A DNA stretch of 64,000 nt from Heterodontus francisci (lineage: Eukaryota): contig NC_090411.1 in the NCBI RefSeq assembly GCF_036365525.1, forward strand, positions 31,760,432-31,824,431. Reading direction: 5' to 3'. How positions within the stretch are numbered: the first letter of the stretch is position 1; each line of letters starts with the position of its first letter. This document shows, piece after piece, positions 26,591-63,642 of the stretch. The position numbers and the translations under genes were made by a program. Under the pieces are notes generated by a model. That model did no database searches and was not told the origin of the DNA. It worked only from the letters and a program-made list of their open reading frames with translations.

Positions 26591-27856
26591 ATCAAGCCAG
26601 GGACTGGGACTGACAGCATAGCTCTGTGGAGCGGATATGGACTCAATGGGCTCCTTCTGTACTGTAAATGACTAAATGGTTTGTTCACTTCATGTCCATC
26701 ATCTTTCATAGATGGAAGGATGCCAACATGTAGTTTAAGCTTCATGCATTTAATGAAATATGTTCACTGCTTCCAGCAGCATTAGATTAGGGTACATTTC
26801 CACACACTCTCCTCTGACTGCACCACCTTATCCAAGCTTTGTTGGAAGAAGATTAGATAAACCTATTCACTAGAGAGTTGCTGTAAGGTTTTCAGAACCA
26901 AGTCCACACTTCCTCCCTCCTGAAAGGAGTGAAATTATGGCAGTTTGGGTTAATTTTCAAGTCATGTAATTGTAATCCATCTCAATATTTGGAATTCAGG
27001 GAGCTCCGACTTTAAATACAACAGCCATAACAGGAAGACTGAAGCAGCAGTTTTGAATTTGAGTGAGCAAGAGCATGTGTATTCCACCATCAGAACTCAG
27101 ACTAGTAGCTTATTAAATACCAGAACTGCTCATTCCTAGGGCAGAGACCGGGACTGAAATAGTACAACATTAACTCATTCCAAAGCATCCTTTTCCATTT
27201 TAAAAGGAGTTGCAGTTAATATTTGTGTATTTAGGCATTAGTGAAATTTGTCAGTGATGCAGAGAATATTCAGCACCAGTGGGAAGAGTTCTTTGTACTT
27301 AAGCTTCTAGTGTTCTCTCAAACCTCTTCCAATCACTCCTTTTAAGAAAGGAAAAAACACCCACTTCTTTGACTAAGCTTTTGGTTACTTGTCTTCTCTC
27401 CTTGTATCTCAATGTCATATTCTATTTAACAGTCTTGTTAAGCATTATGGAATGCTTTACAATGTTAAAAGATGTAAGAGCAAGCAGATATCTACTTTCA
27501 ACAGTAATTGAATGTAATAAAAAGGAAATTGCATGCCTAAAAATCAAGTGTTATTCCAGATGGGAAAATTAAATAACCTTCAGCTGAACCTCATGATGAA
27601 GCTGTTCTATAGCCCAGTGGAATTCCTGTCTGATGCAAACCACATTATGTTAATTCAGAATTAACAAATTAAACAATTCCTTAAAGAGACAAAATCCAGT
27701 CCAATATTGAGCAGTTTATTTACAATTAACATTACACTCCCACAAGAGCCTCAACTCATTGTACAAAGACAACTCTCTAAAGAACAGAGGGGAATCTTCT
27801 TACACCATTACAGTAACAGGAATACCAAACACAATAAACTGACTGCAGTGACTGAC

Positions 27857-42450: not shown

Positions 42451-42760
42451 GGACGGCGCAGTGGTTAGCACCGGAGCCTCACAGCTCCAGGGACCCGGGT
42501 TCAATTCTGGGTACTGCCTGTGCGGAGTTTGCAAGTTCTCCCTGTGACTGCGTGGGTTTTCGCAGGGTGCTCCGGTTTCCTCCCACCACCAAAGACTTGC
42601 AGGTGATAGGTAAATTGGCCATTGTAAATTTCCCCTAGTGTAGGTAGGTGGTAGGGAATATGGGATTACTGTAGGGTTAGTATAAATGGGTGGTTCTTGG
42701 TCGGCACAGACCCGGTGGGCCGAAGGGCCTGTTTCAGTGCTGTATCTCTAAATATAAATA
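42451..42760 (+). mobile_element. HE1/V-SINE-type element
   Basis: Same family as 3353-3680; absent from the paralogous site at ~24465. Confidence 0.87.
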
Positions 42761-44356: not shown

Positions 44357-47267
44357 TCAGTCACTCTCCCCCAGGCTGAGCTTGTCAAACAGGTACTCTC
44401 CCATGTCATTGTCAGGGGCTCCCAGTCTCTTCAGGTTGGTGATGTGCTCTCTAAGCTTCTTGATCATCTTCACTTGCTCATCCAAGTAGTGAGTCTCCAG
44501 GAAGTCACACAACTGAAAAAAAAACCAGATAGGTCCAGCTGTAGAAATCATGAAGTAGTGTCTCAACAACGGTTTGGACATTAATCCTCTTGAACTTGTG
44601 GGTAGAGAAATGGTGTAACGATTAAATGTACTGCTCAAAAGAGGTATATAGATTAATTATCCTACTGTGATCAAACTCTCCTCTCCAAAACACTCAAGAC
44701 ACCAACAGGGAGATATTGGACATTGAAATATTGTGAATGGATTCCAGAGCTGCCAAGATTCATGAACTACAAAAGCCCACATTAAAAGAACTTACATGAG
44801 GGTCAGTGTTGCCAGTGGAGAGTTTGTGCAGATCCAGCAGACTCTGGTTCACATCCTTCTCCATCTGCAGAGCTCTCTGCATTGCCTCCAGACCATTGCT
44901 CCACTCATCCTGCTCTGGCTTCTGAAGAGGAAAGTCAGACAGTTTACTTACAATGGATTTAACAAAAAATACACATTAAATTGCCTGTCACCATAAACCA
45001 CTGTTAGAATATAAATGACTGCATTTAGTTATCACAAGTGGACTGAGGAGGTAAATAGTATATCTATTTAAGGTGAAGCTAGAAATGTGCATAGAAAAGG
45101 AACAGAAGGATATGCTGATCAAGGTTAGTGAAGCAAGGAGAGGAGAGACTGGAGAAATATAAAATACTAGCATAAACCAGCTTGGCTAAATGGCCTATTT
45201 GTGCCTTTTATCAAGTTACAGTCAGTCAGTCATACAGCACAGAAACAGGCCCTTCAGCCCATTGTGTCTGCCAGCCATCAAGCATCTAACTATTCTAATC
45301 CCATTTTCCAACACTTGGCCTGTAGCCTTGTATGCTATGGCATTTCAAGTGCTCATCTAAATACTTCTTAAATGTTGAGGGTTCCTGCCTCTACCACTTC
45401 AGGCAGTGCGTTCCAGATTCCAACCACCCTCTGGGTTAAAAACTTTTCCTCAAATCCCCTCACCTTAAATCTATGCCCCCTGGTTTTTGACCCCTCCGCT
45501 AACGAAAAAAGTTTCTTCCTCTGTAACCTATCAATGCCCCACAATTTTGTATACCTCGAAGGCTTTCCTCCTCACTACTTACAACACCAGTTTTAGTGTC
45601 ATCTGCAAACTTACTGATCATACCTCCTACATTCAAGTCTAAATCATTAATGTGCCCTACAAACAGCAAGGGTCCCAGCACCGATCCCTGTGGTACACCA
45701 CCGGTCATAAGTTGTTTCAGATACTTTCTAAAGCATCAGTTTAAAGGGGATCCAAACAGGAGGCCATTTATTAAACCCAACCTTGATGTCCTCCAAGATG
45801 ATTTGGCCTCCACGTTTATTCTGGAATTTCATCAGTTTCTCAGTGTGCTCCTGTTCCTCATGTGACTGCTCCTTGAAGAACTCAGCAAAGTGACGCAGGG
45901 CAACATCACCCCGGTCAAAGTAATAGGACTGTGGAGAGATTAAAGTAGCATTTGTTTCCCATGGCAGATCAATCATGCATTGCGTACATAAAGCCAATTT
46001 CAATATTTTTCTTTCAAGACTTCACAGTCTCACTAAAAATGCACAGTCTTATTCACTTCAATCGACATGGATTGGATAGTCTCACTCCAAGTCATGGTGA
46101 AACTAGCCAGTGGAAGATTAGGCCATTGGCAAAGGAACTGGGAAATTATCTAATTATCAAGATTTGGATCCTTCAACTAGGTTGATGTTCAATCATTAAC
46201 TATTGACCCAGGTCTGTTTTGTACAGGTTAGTTAAAGGGCACGACTGGAACTGGAGGCAAAGCCCTTAAAGTAGAGATGTAGTTACAGTACACAATTCAC
46301 ATAGTACAATGATGATATAAACAAGTCTGAGTTTTACTGGCTACATTCATCCCATGGACAAGGTCAAAACTACAAGCAGCATTTGGAAACTTCAATACAA
46401 AGTATTTCAGAGGAGAAATTGATACCAAGGAATAAAAAAAAAAGTTAATTGTATGACTGGGAAGTACTCGAAGGTCAAGGCATAGGAAAACAGCAGGACT
46501 GAGGGAGAGCACCCCTGACTAGGGACAAAGTAACTGAAGGCTTGCTACCAATAAAGCAAAAGACTGTATGAGAAAGGACAGAAGGTTACAGCCTGGTACT
46601 TAAAGCCAATAGACAAACAAGAGCAGGCCATTCTGCCCTTCAAATTGAATGGAACAGCCTTGATCATACTGTTCTATCACTTAGCTTTAATCCCTTGCCT
46701 CAAAAGTTCCCGTTATCCCAACAGCCTTTGGCCGAGAGGAGAGAAACAAAAGCAAAAGTTCTAGATTGCTACCATCCTATGTGGAAAAGCACTTCTTGAC
46801 TTCCCTCCCAAATGGCCCAACTTTAATTTTCAGATTAGATTCCTTCATTACGAAAGGCAAGACAGGGAAAAGCTTTTGGGCAATTTCAAATTAAGAATTG
46901 CCAAATATATTCATTGGAATGAGAGGGTATTCCAATAAATCTACAATAACAAACTCACAGGAAAGAGAGTTAAGATTTAACACACTCAAAAAATGGTTCA
47001 GCAATTGCACAGGAGAGAAAAAGTTTGTTCATTAACACACATGATAAATTACATACAGCTTTAAAAAAAAATCACTGTACATAGATTGCAGGAAAATAGC
47101 AGAGTTGGATATATCTCAGTTTAGTAAATTTATAATCTCCATTGAGATAGCGAAAAATGCAAAATTCACCATATTTAAACATAGGAAGAATAGAGCTCCA
47201 GATTGATCTGCTTGTTGACAGCATCCTCACAGCCTTTCTGGTAGTTCTGACACACTTGAGAAGCCAT
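44357..47267 (-). pseudogene. Ferritin copy 9, probable pseudogene with atypical 5' end
   Basis: Exon1 47170-47267 is 98 nt (net -4) and reads ..TAT GTT TAA, an in-frame stop at codon 31. Exons 45782-45928, 44796-44921 and 44357-44512 are open; exons 2 and 4 carry extra missense changes ([19 protein letters not shown]). Confidence 0.85.
45225..45705 (-). mobile_element. CR1 LINE fragments in intron 2 of copy 9
   Basis: [22 protein letters not shown] on the minus strand, plus a CR1 3' end. Confidence 0.8.
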
Positions 47268-47662
47268 CTTATTTATTTTAACTTCCAAACAGCTTTGTTG
47301 AAACAAAAAGTTAAAACTTCAACTGCCCGAACTGCTGTTTTTGTTCTGCTAGATAATCCAGGGCGTGGCAGTCTAGGTAATGAGCGACAATCCTCAACAC
47401 CCTATTAGAAATTGCAGCCTCCCTCAGTACACCAATCAAGTAAAGGGAGGGGGGGAAGAGCCACTCACAGCTTTGTAGGTTGAGCATCATTGGCTGACAG
47501 CTCAATAAGGATCTCAATTGCCCTGCACTTCCCCCAAACATAATTCAAATATCCAGAATCAGTGGTTTAAGCGAATTCTTTAGCGCTTTTATACGGATGT
47601 ATATCTTTATCAATTAAAAGAGGTAATCAGTGCTCCCTTCTTAAAAGGACATCACTAAAAAA

Positions 47663-48030
47663 GGGCGGCACAGTGGCGCAGTGGTGAGCACCGCAGCCTC
47701 ACAGCTCCAGCGACCCGGGTTCAATTCTGGGTACTGCCTGTGTGGAGTTTGCGAGTTCTCCCTGTGACTGCATAGGTTTTCGCCGGGTGCTCCGGTTTCC
47801 TCCCACAGCCAAAAGACTTGCAGGTTAATAGGTAAATTGGCCATTATAAATTGCCCCTAGTATAGGTAGGTGGTAGGGGAATATAGGGACAGGTGAGGAT
47901 GTGGTAGGAATATGGGATTAGTGTAGGATTAGTATAAATGGGTGGTTAATGGTCGGCACAGACTTGGTGGGCCGAAGGGCCTGTTTCAGTGATGTATCTC
48001 TAAATCTAAAATCTAAATCTAAAAAATCTA
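47663..48030 (+). mobile_element. Full-length HE1/V-SINE-type element
   Basis: GGGCGGCACAGTGGCGCAGTGG head and (TCTAAA)n tail. Confidence 0.9.
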
Positions 48031-59150: not shown

Positions 59151-59779
59151 CAAGATCAGGAGAGTGGGATTGAAGTGAAAAGTGCCTCTTTTAGGTCACC
59201 AGTAATATGAGATAGTCAATTCAGCTAAAAAGATTCAAAATATAAGGATCAAGTGCCATTGCAACAAAAAGATACCTTCCCTACAAAATCAGGATCTTAT
59301 TTTTGACGTGCAAGATACTGTAAATCCTGAGGTGCCCACTGGTGGCAGAAGGCATCCAGGGTACCAGTGGACACCACATGCTCCCTCCCTCAGGGCCATC
59401 TGGGCAACTGCAAGACGATAGAAGAGAAACAGGCAGACAGAATGACCCCACCCAACCAGCTGTCCACCATCCCAACCCCATGGGCCTAACCAGTCCTGGA
59501 ACAACAAATTGCTGAATTAGCTATGCCTAGCAAGCCCAAAAGAAGATCCTGACTTTCTCTCACTCGTCCCTTCGCATCCTGCGGCTACAGATCTAGTAAC
59601 ATTGGGGAAACATAGTGTCTCCTTATGTGTTACTTTAGAAAAGAATACCATTCGTGATGATCATGATTGTTTATTTTTGCTTCCCACGTGTAATATTTTG
59701 AACTTGTCTGCAGTATTCATCCAATGGGGCCCATCAGCAAAGTTCTGCCTGGTCTGAAGTATCATCCCCACTGCACCTT

Positions 59780-59937
59780 ATCCTTGATTGGTGTCCTCTG
59801 TGAGTATAGAGCTCTGATTGGTTACTGGGAGTTGTTACTCATCAGCTGGAATGTCACTCCCTGTATTTAAGGCGCGCTGTCCACATACTATAAATACTGG
59901 AGCTTGGTAGGGAATTAGGTTTATTTAGGAAGTTAGA
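59780..59937 (+). promoter_or_regulatory. Promoter/leader of copy 11
   Basis: Two inverted CCAAT boxes (GATTGG at ~59786 and ~59816); TATAAATA at 59889-59896, only 41 nt above the ATG. Confidence 0.65.
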
Positions 59938-61937
<2,000 letters not shown>

Positions 61938-63642
61938 ACTGACTGCAGGGTTCAAGCTTGTTTTGTTTAATAATGTATGTAGGCCTTGCTCTTTCTGTCA
62001 TCTTTTTAGGGACTGATTGCTTGTGTTTTGTAGAAGAACTGTGAACTGGGCTCTCCAATATGAAATATAATTGAATAAAGTGTTTAAAATGGCCCTCTTG
62101 AGTGGTTGCTTATTCTGTAATAACCAGAAATTATGAACTTTCTGCAGTAGCTCCTCACTCTCGTCACTCTTGTGGTATGTGCTGGTACTTTCCTTCTGGT
62201 GTATTGACATGATTTTGTATTTCTGAGCCATACGATGGTGTAAACTTGATTCTATGTGTACCATGAATGTAATTGACAAAGCAATGATCATGTTGCAACT
62301 GGCCATAACCACCAATGCTGTCATTCAAGTCACTACTGCTGACACATACTTATCTTGCCCCTTTCCACAAATGGCAACAAGCTCTTGTTAATTGATCAAT
62401 ACAGCAAGACATGAACACCAGGAAAGTTTTTCCAGTGGGTTTGGTATTAAACCATTTCAGAGTAATGACCATAAAGCTGTGGTTTAGTATCCTATTTAAG
62501 AATAGTACCTGCTCTTGGAAGTTCAATACCTAATTTTTGAAGTCTGGTTCTGTACCTCAGCTACTACAAACAGCTCATTACTTCTGTTGCAGACTCTGGT
62601 AAGCTTGGTGGCAGTGCAGAGTAGACCTACTCACAGTAGTAACTTGAGCTCACTTGCATTAAGTTATTAAACTCATCACACGCAGGCCACTGTGATTGGG
62701 GAAATCAAGGTAAAATGCTATGTCTGCTTGCTTTTAACTGGCAACTTGTGGGGAAATGTGTGCTGAGAGCCACTCCTATTTCCTTACCCCCTACAACCCT
62801 TCTACAGGACTGAGGAACTGACTATAGTACTAAAGGAAAAATAAGAGCATATGGAACTATACATCAGCAAATGGAAGCAAAGGCATTTCATCAAATAACT
62901 CAACACACCAAGCATGTTACACAAAGCTATTTCTCCTGAAACACTTTGACCATACAACGGCTCAATGAATTCAATAGGGAATTGGAAATATTGAATTTAC
63001 AAAGCTTTGGGCTGCTTGAATAGGTGCTAATTTAGTTTTGACAAGGAAATTGCATATACTTGAAATAAAAAATTTCAAAGGGGTAAATGAAAGATGTGAT
63101 GGGCCGAATGGCCTCTATCTGTGCTTGTATGGTTCCATATCCCAATATTCTTGGGCTCTCCATAAATGTATCACTTTGTATTTTGGTCCAGTGTGCATTT
63201 TAAAACAAATAGCAATCATTGTTTCTAAATTGTACTGGATTTGTCTTCTGTGATTCAAATATGGATGCAGCTGTAATAATGCAGTGTGTACAATGAAGTT
63301 TCAGAACTTAGTTGAGTCCTGCACTGGGTACAATGATATTGCAGTCTTCAGTCATCCCACATTAATGTCTTTGCATCTCTCAAAGGCACTTTTGGAGATT
63401 AATAGCACCTCATTTCATACACCGATGAGATAAAATTCTACAAGTTAGTGTGGATTTGAGTGCTGTTTGGTTTAACTGATCCATATTTCAGAAAAAGCAA
63501 TGGCTTCAGCTGACTCATTGTGTTGATCTTGGATTTGAATGAGCTGCAAACATTCTCTGGACTATGTTCGCAACTGAGGTCAATCTTTACCCCACTCCAT
63601 GCTGATACATTTCCTACAGTGTGACTACGAAGAATAGCAGGC

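Follow-up and report, generated by a model that had tools for sequence, protein, structure and literature searches.

A decayed IRE-like element in a ferritin pseudogene of Heterodontus francisci, and hybrid genes in the array around it

Ferritin is the model case of control by the iron-responsive element (IRE), and sharks carry hundreds of ferritin copies. An IRE is defined by a 6-nt CAGWGH loop, a five-pair stem, a bulged C, and a lower stem, and SIREs accepts 22 motifs (PMC12230718). All five H and M ferritins of salmon are reported to have IREs (PMC4117605). The yolk ferritin of the snails Biomphalaria and Lymnaea is described with a 5′ UTR that lacks an IRE, and this protein is secreted, with a signal peptide and a 42-residue insertion (PMC10799875). 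For sharks, a preprint on the Greenland shark reports 155 plus 179 annotated ferritin copies, ferritin clusters common to the Greenland and white sharks, and ovary-specific expression (bioRxiv 10.1101/2024.09.09.611499). Section 6 of that preprint is silent on IREs, leaders, pseudogenes, and hybrid genes. Our search of the literature, in which subscription papers were thinly covered, turned up neither a description of how these many copies are regulated nor a report that deals with IREs in the shark clusters.

The whole stretch of DNA analyzed here, which we call the window, comprises 64,000 nt of Heterodontus francisci and holds 11 ferritin genes, of which ten lie on the minus strand and one is inverted (Table 1). 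Like the shark clusters described above, it is a tandem array of many ferritin genes. Frameshifts disable copies 4 and 9, the window edge truncates copy 1, and the remaining eight have open frames. Exon 2 of copy 8 resembles solved ferritin H and M chains (E about 1e-21), and the nearest database proteins are shark ferritins, with copy 2 being 98% identical to the H. francisci protein P0021. Relatives in NCBI and UniRef are named "ferritin heavy chain B-like" or "oocyte isoform-like" and come from Heterodontus, Heptranchias, Pristiophorus, and others; searches of the viral and prokaryote collections with the shark ferritin DNA gave 0 matches in each. The array chains have 173-176 residues. They resemble snail yolk ferritin in being ferritins, presumably egg-related, without an IRE in the 5′ UTR, but they have neither the signal peptide nor the 42-residue insertion of the snail protein, and the two are presumably of separate origin.

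The explanation that we favor, and consider probable, is a single reading in which copy 9 is a pseudogene, its leader would hold the relic of an IRE lost at the base of the array or close to it, and copies 4-8 are hybrid genes. Its central feature is an element of a known kind, decayed, in a pseudogene of a known gene expansion. The element itself would be a dead relic with no new activity.

Table 1. Coordinates of array features in the window; position 1 is the first letter of the window
Feature	Position	Strand	Remark
ATGs of copies 1 to 10, in order	1327, 8270, 14793, 20509, 24135, 30088, 35777, 42089, 47267, 54626	-	
Copy 11	59640-61939	+	Inverted, ATG at 59938; open frame, intact TATA box; living 5′-end sister of copy 9
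Copies 8 to 4 and 5′ half of copy 3	14793-44356	-	Six related spacers, five apparent hybrid genes
Copy 4	20509-18628	-	Second pseudogene; its start codon is CTG, exon 1 has a stop and indels, and exon 4 a shift; no TATA box, no TGTCA element
Copy 9 exons 2-4 with introns 2 and 3	44357-45928	-	Exons at 45928-45782, 44921-44796, 44512-44357
Copy 9 intron 1	45929-47169	-	Both ends align with intron 1 of copy 11
Copy 9 exon 1, coding part	47170-47267	-	98 nt versus 102, four letters short
Copy 9 stop TAA	47177-47175	-	Codon 31; 30-residue product
Copy 9 leader (TATA-to-ATG stretch)	47268-47338	-	71 nt; collinear with copies 1 and 2 (70 nt)
Decayed IRE-like element	47281-47311	-	31 nt; 22/32 identical to the L046 IRE, one gap
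Element, lower-stem 5′ arm	47311-47306	-	
Element, UGU	47305-47303	-	
Element, upper 5′ arm	47302-47298	-	
Element, loop	47297-47292	-	CAAAGC, then decayed upper 3′ arm
Element, lower-stem 3′ arm	47286-47281	-	
Copy 9 promoter	47309-47560	-	Diverged array-family promoter; its sister is the copy 11 promoter
Mutated TATA box	47346-47337	-	GAACAAAAAC; 3/10 letters differ from the commonest array form
Proposed GC box	47369-47361	-	By column, mutated TGTCA(C/T)T element, then a gap of ~12 nt
CCAAT	47493-47489	-	Upstream of copy 9
ATTGG	47436-47432	-	Upstream of copy 9
Closest canonical IRE word	27497-27512	+	In a spacer, 2 mismatches; chance level (98/100 shuffles have one)

A preliminary description of this locus called copy 9 dead, and the frameshift in its first exon is indeed real. 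Two DNA contigs from the same sample agree with the window over 45879-47655 (0 differing letters, 0 gaps), although they are possibly the source of the window, so that this agreement is not independent. Copy 9 combines H/M-like ferritin exons with a disabling change, and its exons 2-4 keep an open frame with several private amino acid changes. Of its 504 coding letters, 10 carry private changes (7 that change an amino acid and 3 silent), or about 2%, and its exon 3 is identical to that of five other copies. Because gene conversion keeps exons alike, this 2% may understate the age of the death of copy 9, and a protein tree may misplace the copy. The three changes in its TATA box point to an older death. 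Any transcript of copy 9 would yield only the 30-residue peptide and is predicted to be removed by nonsense-mediated decay, which acts on frameshifted transcripts of this type.

The same description saw an A-rich ACAAAAA, a GC box, and CCAAT words upstream of copy 9 in place of the array promoter. The words are located where they had been put, but the promoter is a collinear, diverged homologue of the others. The copy 9 sequence GAACAAAAAC aligns in the TATA column of the other copies, and TATAAATA is found in nine of the 11 copies, being missing only from the frameshifted copies 4 and 9. Likewise, the TGTCA(C/T)T element stands in nine copies and is missing in 4 and 9, and CCAAT or ATTGG words occur in ten of the 11 promoters. 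Since the TATA box and the TGTCA element are both present in nine copies and gone only in the two frameshifted ones, their state in copy 9 is best read as decay rather than as another promoter. When a promoter profile was built from copies 1-8 and 10, the two best matches in the window outside the training set were copy 11 (E 9.9e-14) and copy 9 (47486-47309, E 0.0011). Direct alignment of the copy 9 and copy 11 promoters gives 130 identities, 70 mismatches, and 20 gap positions (z 11.3, with 0 of 300 shuffles as good). Copies 9 and 11 retain 46 and 53, respectively, of 83 invariant promoter columns and are thus about equally far from the main type. A likeness between a fish ferritin promoter (locus L046, see below) and the array promoter was set aside, being confined to the TATA word.

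The leader of copy 9 also has relatives within the array. Aligned end to end with the leaders of copies 1 and 2 it reaches z 3.7 and 3.6 (0 of 1000 letter shuffles as good in each case), whereas local alignment to the same two leaders is not significant (69 and 66 of 1000). This collinearity implies that copies 1 and 2 carry homologues of the IRE-like stretch in which the resemblance to an IRE is gone. The leader of copy 11, at 41 nt, is 30 nt shorter than that of copy 9 and has no IRE-like stretch; the last 13 letters common to these two leaders are not significant on their own (279 of 1000 shuffles) and were not used.

The element was originally presented as a hairpin that retains both arms. 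On the minus strand, 47305-47284 gives the 22 letters that were quoted, and the bulged C has been lost as claimed, with U at 47303 instead, but the hairpin itself does not hold up. Pair probabilities in the upper stem are 0.03-0.09, and the fold of the whole element has z from -0.9 to +0.9. The loop is CAAAGC in a 6-nt register, or 9 nt in the register first proposed, and is absent from the 22 SIREs loop/bulge motifs (PMC12230718, Table 2). No unpaired C lies five pairs below the loop. The five-pair upper stem is worth -0.1 kcal/mol alone in the register first proposed and is unpaired in the 6-nt-loop register. The lower stem is retained as an outer stem in the minimum-energy fold, with a pair probability of 0.1-0.3 in its sequence context.

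Searches with covariance models agree with this picture. At threshold, Rfam finds no IRE in any of the 11 copies across the whole window, and neither IRE_I nor IRE_II, nor any other IRE family, matches the 701 or 58 bases around the element at E up to 10; the sub-threshold matches in these scans belong to unrelated families only. By comparison, 7 of 7 ferritin IRE loci used as controls score 41.5-57.2 bits (threshold 34). These controls came from an IRE pattern scan that gave at least 119 loci (3 viral and 116 metagenome). Among the 119 loci listed, 7 adjoin ferritin sequence, none of them shark-like, and 5 distinct ones trained our models; the other 112 were dropped as chance matches. Two loci, L046 and L095, are presumably teleost M-type ferritin loci, a label that we take from their N-termini. 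Our own covariance model, made from the five distinct IREs, places the lower stem at 47313-47279 with 3.8 bits (E 0.14 in 71 nt), and 11 other sites in the window score 7.6-13.2 bits. The arm pair alone is not rare either, with 20 matches on both strands of the window. Given the absence of any Rfam match, the wrong bulge and loop, and the unpaired upper stem, the copy 9 element is not a working IRE.

It could be asked whether the stem is instead under selection as a non-IRE structure, or as a non-canonical protein-binding site in a non-coding transcript. The minimum-energy fold does contain an outer stem of 11-12 pairs (-7.5 kcal/mol), and the three lower-stem differences from the L046 IRE all keep pairing (G-C to C-G, C-G to U-G, and G-C to G-U). 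However, 34 of 200 shuffles fold as well, the lower-stem pair probabilities in context are low, and both the TATA box and the TGTCA element are mutated. In addition, the loop and bulge match 0 of the 22 SIREs motifs (PMC12230718), and we judge selection on such a structure to be very improbable.

Despite its failure as a working element, the copy 9 sequence shares several features with the ferritin IRE (RF00037, IRE_I). It sits in a ferritin 5′ leader behind the TATA position, has a UG-x-UUCAA-CA core, and carries a lower stem of matching spacing (19 nt between arms versus 20). The best register of its alignment to the L046 IRE, with 22 of 32 letters identical, gives the 6-nt loop CAAAGC and a decayed upper 3′ arm. 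It differs as follows: U stands for the bulged C, the loop is CAAAGC, the upper stem is broken, there is no Rfam score, and the gene is dead. Moreover, the element starts 41 nt from the TATA position (63 in L046) and ends 13-16 nt before the ATG, compared with 149-226 nt in the six vertebrate IRE loci for which this distance is given.

Because covariance models score working elements, we used a decay profile, which is a sequence profile of five Rfam-validated IREs blurred by neutral change, with a scoring scheme that is specific to this analysis. Under six settings the copy 9 leader scores 10.3-13.7 bits and the other ten leaders at most 5.1. The copy 9 score is reached by 3-11 of 1802 tiles of the window, possibly including its own tile, and by 1-6 of 1000 dinucleotide shuffles. 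With the profile columns permuted (four settings), 1-5 of 600 profiles attained this score in at least one of the 11 leaders. Multiplying the tile rate by 11 leaders gives about 0.02-0.07, which is a modest margin over chance for a leader that is U-rich. The likeness to an IRE at the expected place is moderately above chance by the decay profile, whereas the covariance models give no support.

The main competing view is that this likeness arose by chance as a U/A-rich leader, a homologue of the leaders in copies 1 and 2, drifted, in which case the pseudogene and the hybrid history would stand and the IRE would not. Such a view accommodates the lack of covariance-model support, the 20 arm-pair matches in the window, and a fold no better than that of shuffles. 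It also fits the homologous leaders of copies 1 and 2, which show no IRE signal (-3.5 to 5.1 bits with the same profile), and the fact that two different registers fit the element about equally well. Weighing against it are the scarcity of permuted profiles that do as well in any leader, the position of the element at the right place behind the TATA position, and the near-identical arm spacing. We consider chance to be unlikely on balance, though it carries appreciable weight, and we think it quite likely that the copy 9 element descends from an IRE. The descent proposed in the preliminary description is therefore retained with moderate profile support, in a better register than the original and with a decayed upper 3′ arm where both arms had been thought intact. 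A sawshark read-through peptide (P0026) was also considered as strong confirmation of a shared broken IRE and fell under a formal null. Its core profile score is reached by 47-92 of 1500 null peptides, which is weak, and its full profile score by 367-745 of 1500. A protein search with the translated element found no matching protein.

The extent of decay may indicate the order of events. The element differs from the intact L046 IRE at 10 of 32 positions, or about 30%, compared with the 2% seen in coding sequence, which argues that the IRE was lost long before the coding sequence of copy 9 decayed. Even allowing for exon homogenization and an older decay of the promoter, we infer that the IRE went first. 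No IRE signal is present in the leaders that P0016 (H. francisci) and P0058 (Cetorhinus) read through, and both are similar to the leaders of copies 1 and 2 in translation. The occurrence of IRE-less leaders in the gene models of both H. francisci and Cetorhinus suggests that the IRE-less state is older than this lineage.

These observations bear on the earlier proposal that copy 9 was the IRE-regulated founder of the array, or a chimera with the founder's 5′ end, which died as IRE-less copies spread. It is true that no other promoter is as diverged as that of copy 9, that no other leader is IRE-like, that copy 9 appears to be a parent of the hybrid block described below, and that exon homogenization could hide an old death. 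Nevertheless, its promoter is of the array family, with the living, IRE-less copy 11 as its sister, and these two are about equally far from the main promoter type. A protein tree of 36 rows, in which row labels for metagenome loci are inferred, unites array proteins from sharks, a ray, and a chimaera in a single clade (99/96) that includes the copy 9 protein and is separate from the H-chain clade. Outside the array clade lies a ferritin unit of greater divergence, at the end of the fused H. francisci model P0001. This unit is not in the window and is a candidate source gene for the array. Together with an IRE far more decayed than the coding sequence, and with a segment pattern that makes copies 4-8 the hybrids, these data leave an ancestral IRE-regulated copy 9 improbable.

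The affinities of individual segments also reverse the idea of a chimeric copy 9. As had been reported, intron 1 of copy 9 is unlike that of copies 3-8, with no blastn match, and the flanks of exons 3 and 4 are array-type, in that introns 2 and 3 and the 3′ flank match copies 4-8. The non-coding parts around exons 2-4 are of the type carried by copies 4-8. Intron 1 is not unique in this respect, however, because copies 10 and 11 and the pair 1 and 2 likewise have no blastn match to most of the copies. Against 60 dinucleotide shuffles, intron 1 of copy 9 aligns with that of copy 11 at its start (z 4.8-6.0, 76 of 107 aligned letters identical) and at its end (z 5.1-6.8, 82 of 118), and the only other copy related to it is copy 6, at the start (z 3.5-4.6). 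By segment, the promoters of copies 9 and 11 reach z 16 (60 shuffles). Four of five segments in introns 2 and 3 and the 3′ flank give z 2.5-6.7 between these copies; the low values are about 1 in the first part of intron 2 and 0.1 at the end of intron 3. Copy 9 thus pairs with copy 11 for both promoter and intron 1, and its 3′ half groups with copies 4-8 and with copy 11.

A chimera should have 5′ and 3′ halves with different nearest relatives, and such a clean switch is seen not in copy 9 but in copies 4-8. In the 5′ non-coding parts, summed blastn scores are 114-326 bits between copy 3 and copies 4-8, and 0 between copy 9 and all others. In the 3′ non-coding parts they are 93-192 bits between copy 9 and copies 4-8, and 0 between copy 3 and copies 4-8. 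The 3′ half of copy 3 matches only copy 2. In copies 4-8, the partner changes from copy 3 to copy 9 close to where intron 1 ends; on visual inspection, their acceptors for this intron are of the type found in copies 9 and 11. Judged by these affinities, copies 4-8 are hybrids with copy-3-type 5′ halves and copy-9-type 3′ halves, and copy 9 is one of the parents. The six spacers from 9-to-8 down to 4-to-3 have collinear pieces in common at 70-85% identity; spacer 3-to-2 pairs with 2-to-1, and spacer 10-to-9 shares only apparent interspersed repeats.

The order 9, 8-4, 3 and the segment affinities form the pattern expected from repeated unequal crossing-over, and we suggest that such exchange between copy-9 and copy-3 genes gave rise to the hybrids. 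Alternatively, conversion of 5′ ends could mimic this pattern. Lepore-type globin fusions are hybrid genes that arise by unequal crossing-over in tandem arrays. Like them, copies 4-8 have a 5′ half from one parent and a 3′ half from the other, and the parents flank the hybrids. Unlike them, the shark array has five hybrids in a row, and the 70-85% identity of the shared spacer pieces suggests that these hybrids are old and fixed rather than a recent allele. On the crossing-over reading, 14793-44356 would be a clean record of how the array grew.

Our favored reading, with an IRE relic in copy 9 and hybrids in copies 4-8, would entail the following history. The ferritin IRE would have failed around or at the base of the array, a long time before copy 9 died, and the array genes would be ferritins made without the brake of iron regulatory protein (IRP) on translation. 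Copy 9 and the inverted copy 11 would represent one old sub-lineage of 5′ ends, with copies 1-3 and 10 carrying the other promoter type. Repeated unequal crossing-over between copies 9 and 3, switching late in intron 1 or within exon 2, would then have produced hybrids 4-8. Later, copy 9 would have lost its TATA box and reading frame while keeping the clearest trace of the IRE.

An array without the IRP brake would fit the mass production in the ovary that is reported for such clusters in another shark, and the array presumably is an ovary cluster whose leaders escape IRP control. With all 11 copies lacking a working IRE and one holding a readable trace, the iron brake may have been lost first, and the expansion for loading eggs with iron may have come after. 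Perhaps shark ovary ferritin clusters began when a short-leader duplicate of an IRE-bearing gene broke its IRE. In this tentative scheme, to which we give somewhat less than an even chance, release from iron-dependent repression occurred >250 million years ago, and the array then grew by serial formation of hybrid genes. If true, such an origin would be a vertebrate parallel to the IRE-less yolk ferritin of snails.

Several other observations concern the array as a whole. Of the 12 sequencing runs listed, four contain the stretch; all come from one sample and one study, and no RNA run is listed among those containing it. Contigs from four of the 12 runs were aligned to the stretch. In a DNA run, summed contig depth is 500-1400 on exons versus 4.8 on intron (45760-45951 and 47168-47295). 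This excess fits a very large gene family, although summed contig depth is no copy number. No second DNA contig was found over 47296-47551 at 80% likeness, which does not in itself show absence. A contig of 78 nt that matches 47206-47277 extends 10 nt into the copy 9 leader and hints at another copy with a similar leader end. A run of the same sample carries the label RNA, which is a guess; one of its contigs connects the first three exons of an intact copy of array type. Among the RNA contigs listed, none lies over the copy 9 leader, which says nothing on expression.

Exons are near-identical across all 11 copies (0-4 differences in 125 for exon 3), and introns of different types cannot be aligned, a pattern that would suggest either strong selection or exon-limited gene conversion. 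Exon 4 ends in a short C-terminal type in copies 2 and 3 (173 residues) and in a longer one in copies 4-11 (175-176 residues). Both length types are also present in proteins of other sharks, and the two 3′ types may be old. An interspersed repeat of roughly 330 nt, which we take to be SINE-like, occurs in several spacers (including 47660-48000 and 42460-42760) with copies 83-92% alike. Finally, copy 10 has an open frame, 18 private changes, its own introns, and an array-type promoter, and its exon 2 carries substitutions near the iron-oxidizing site region.
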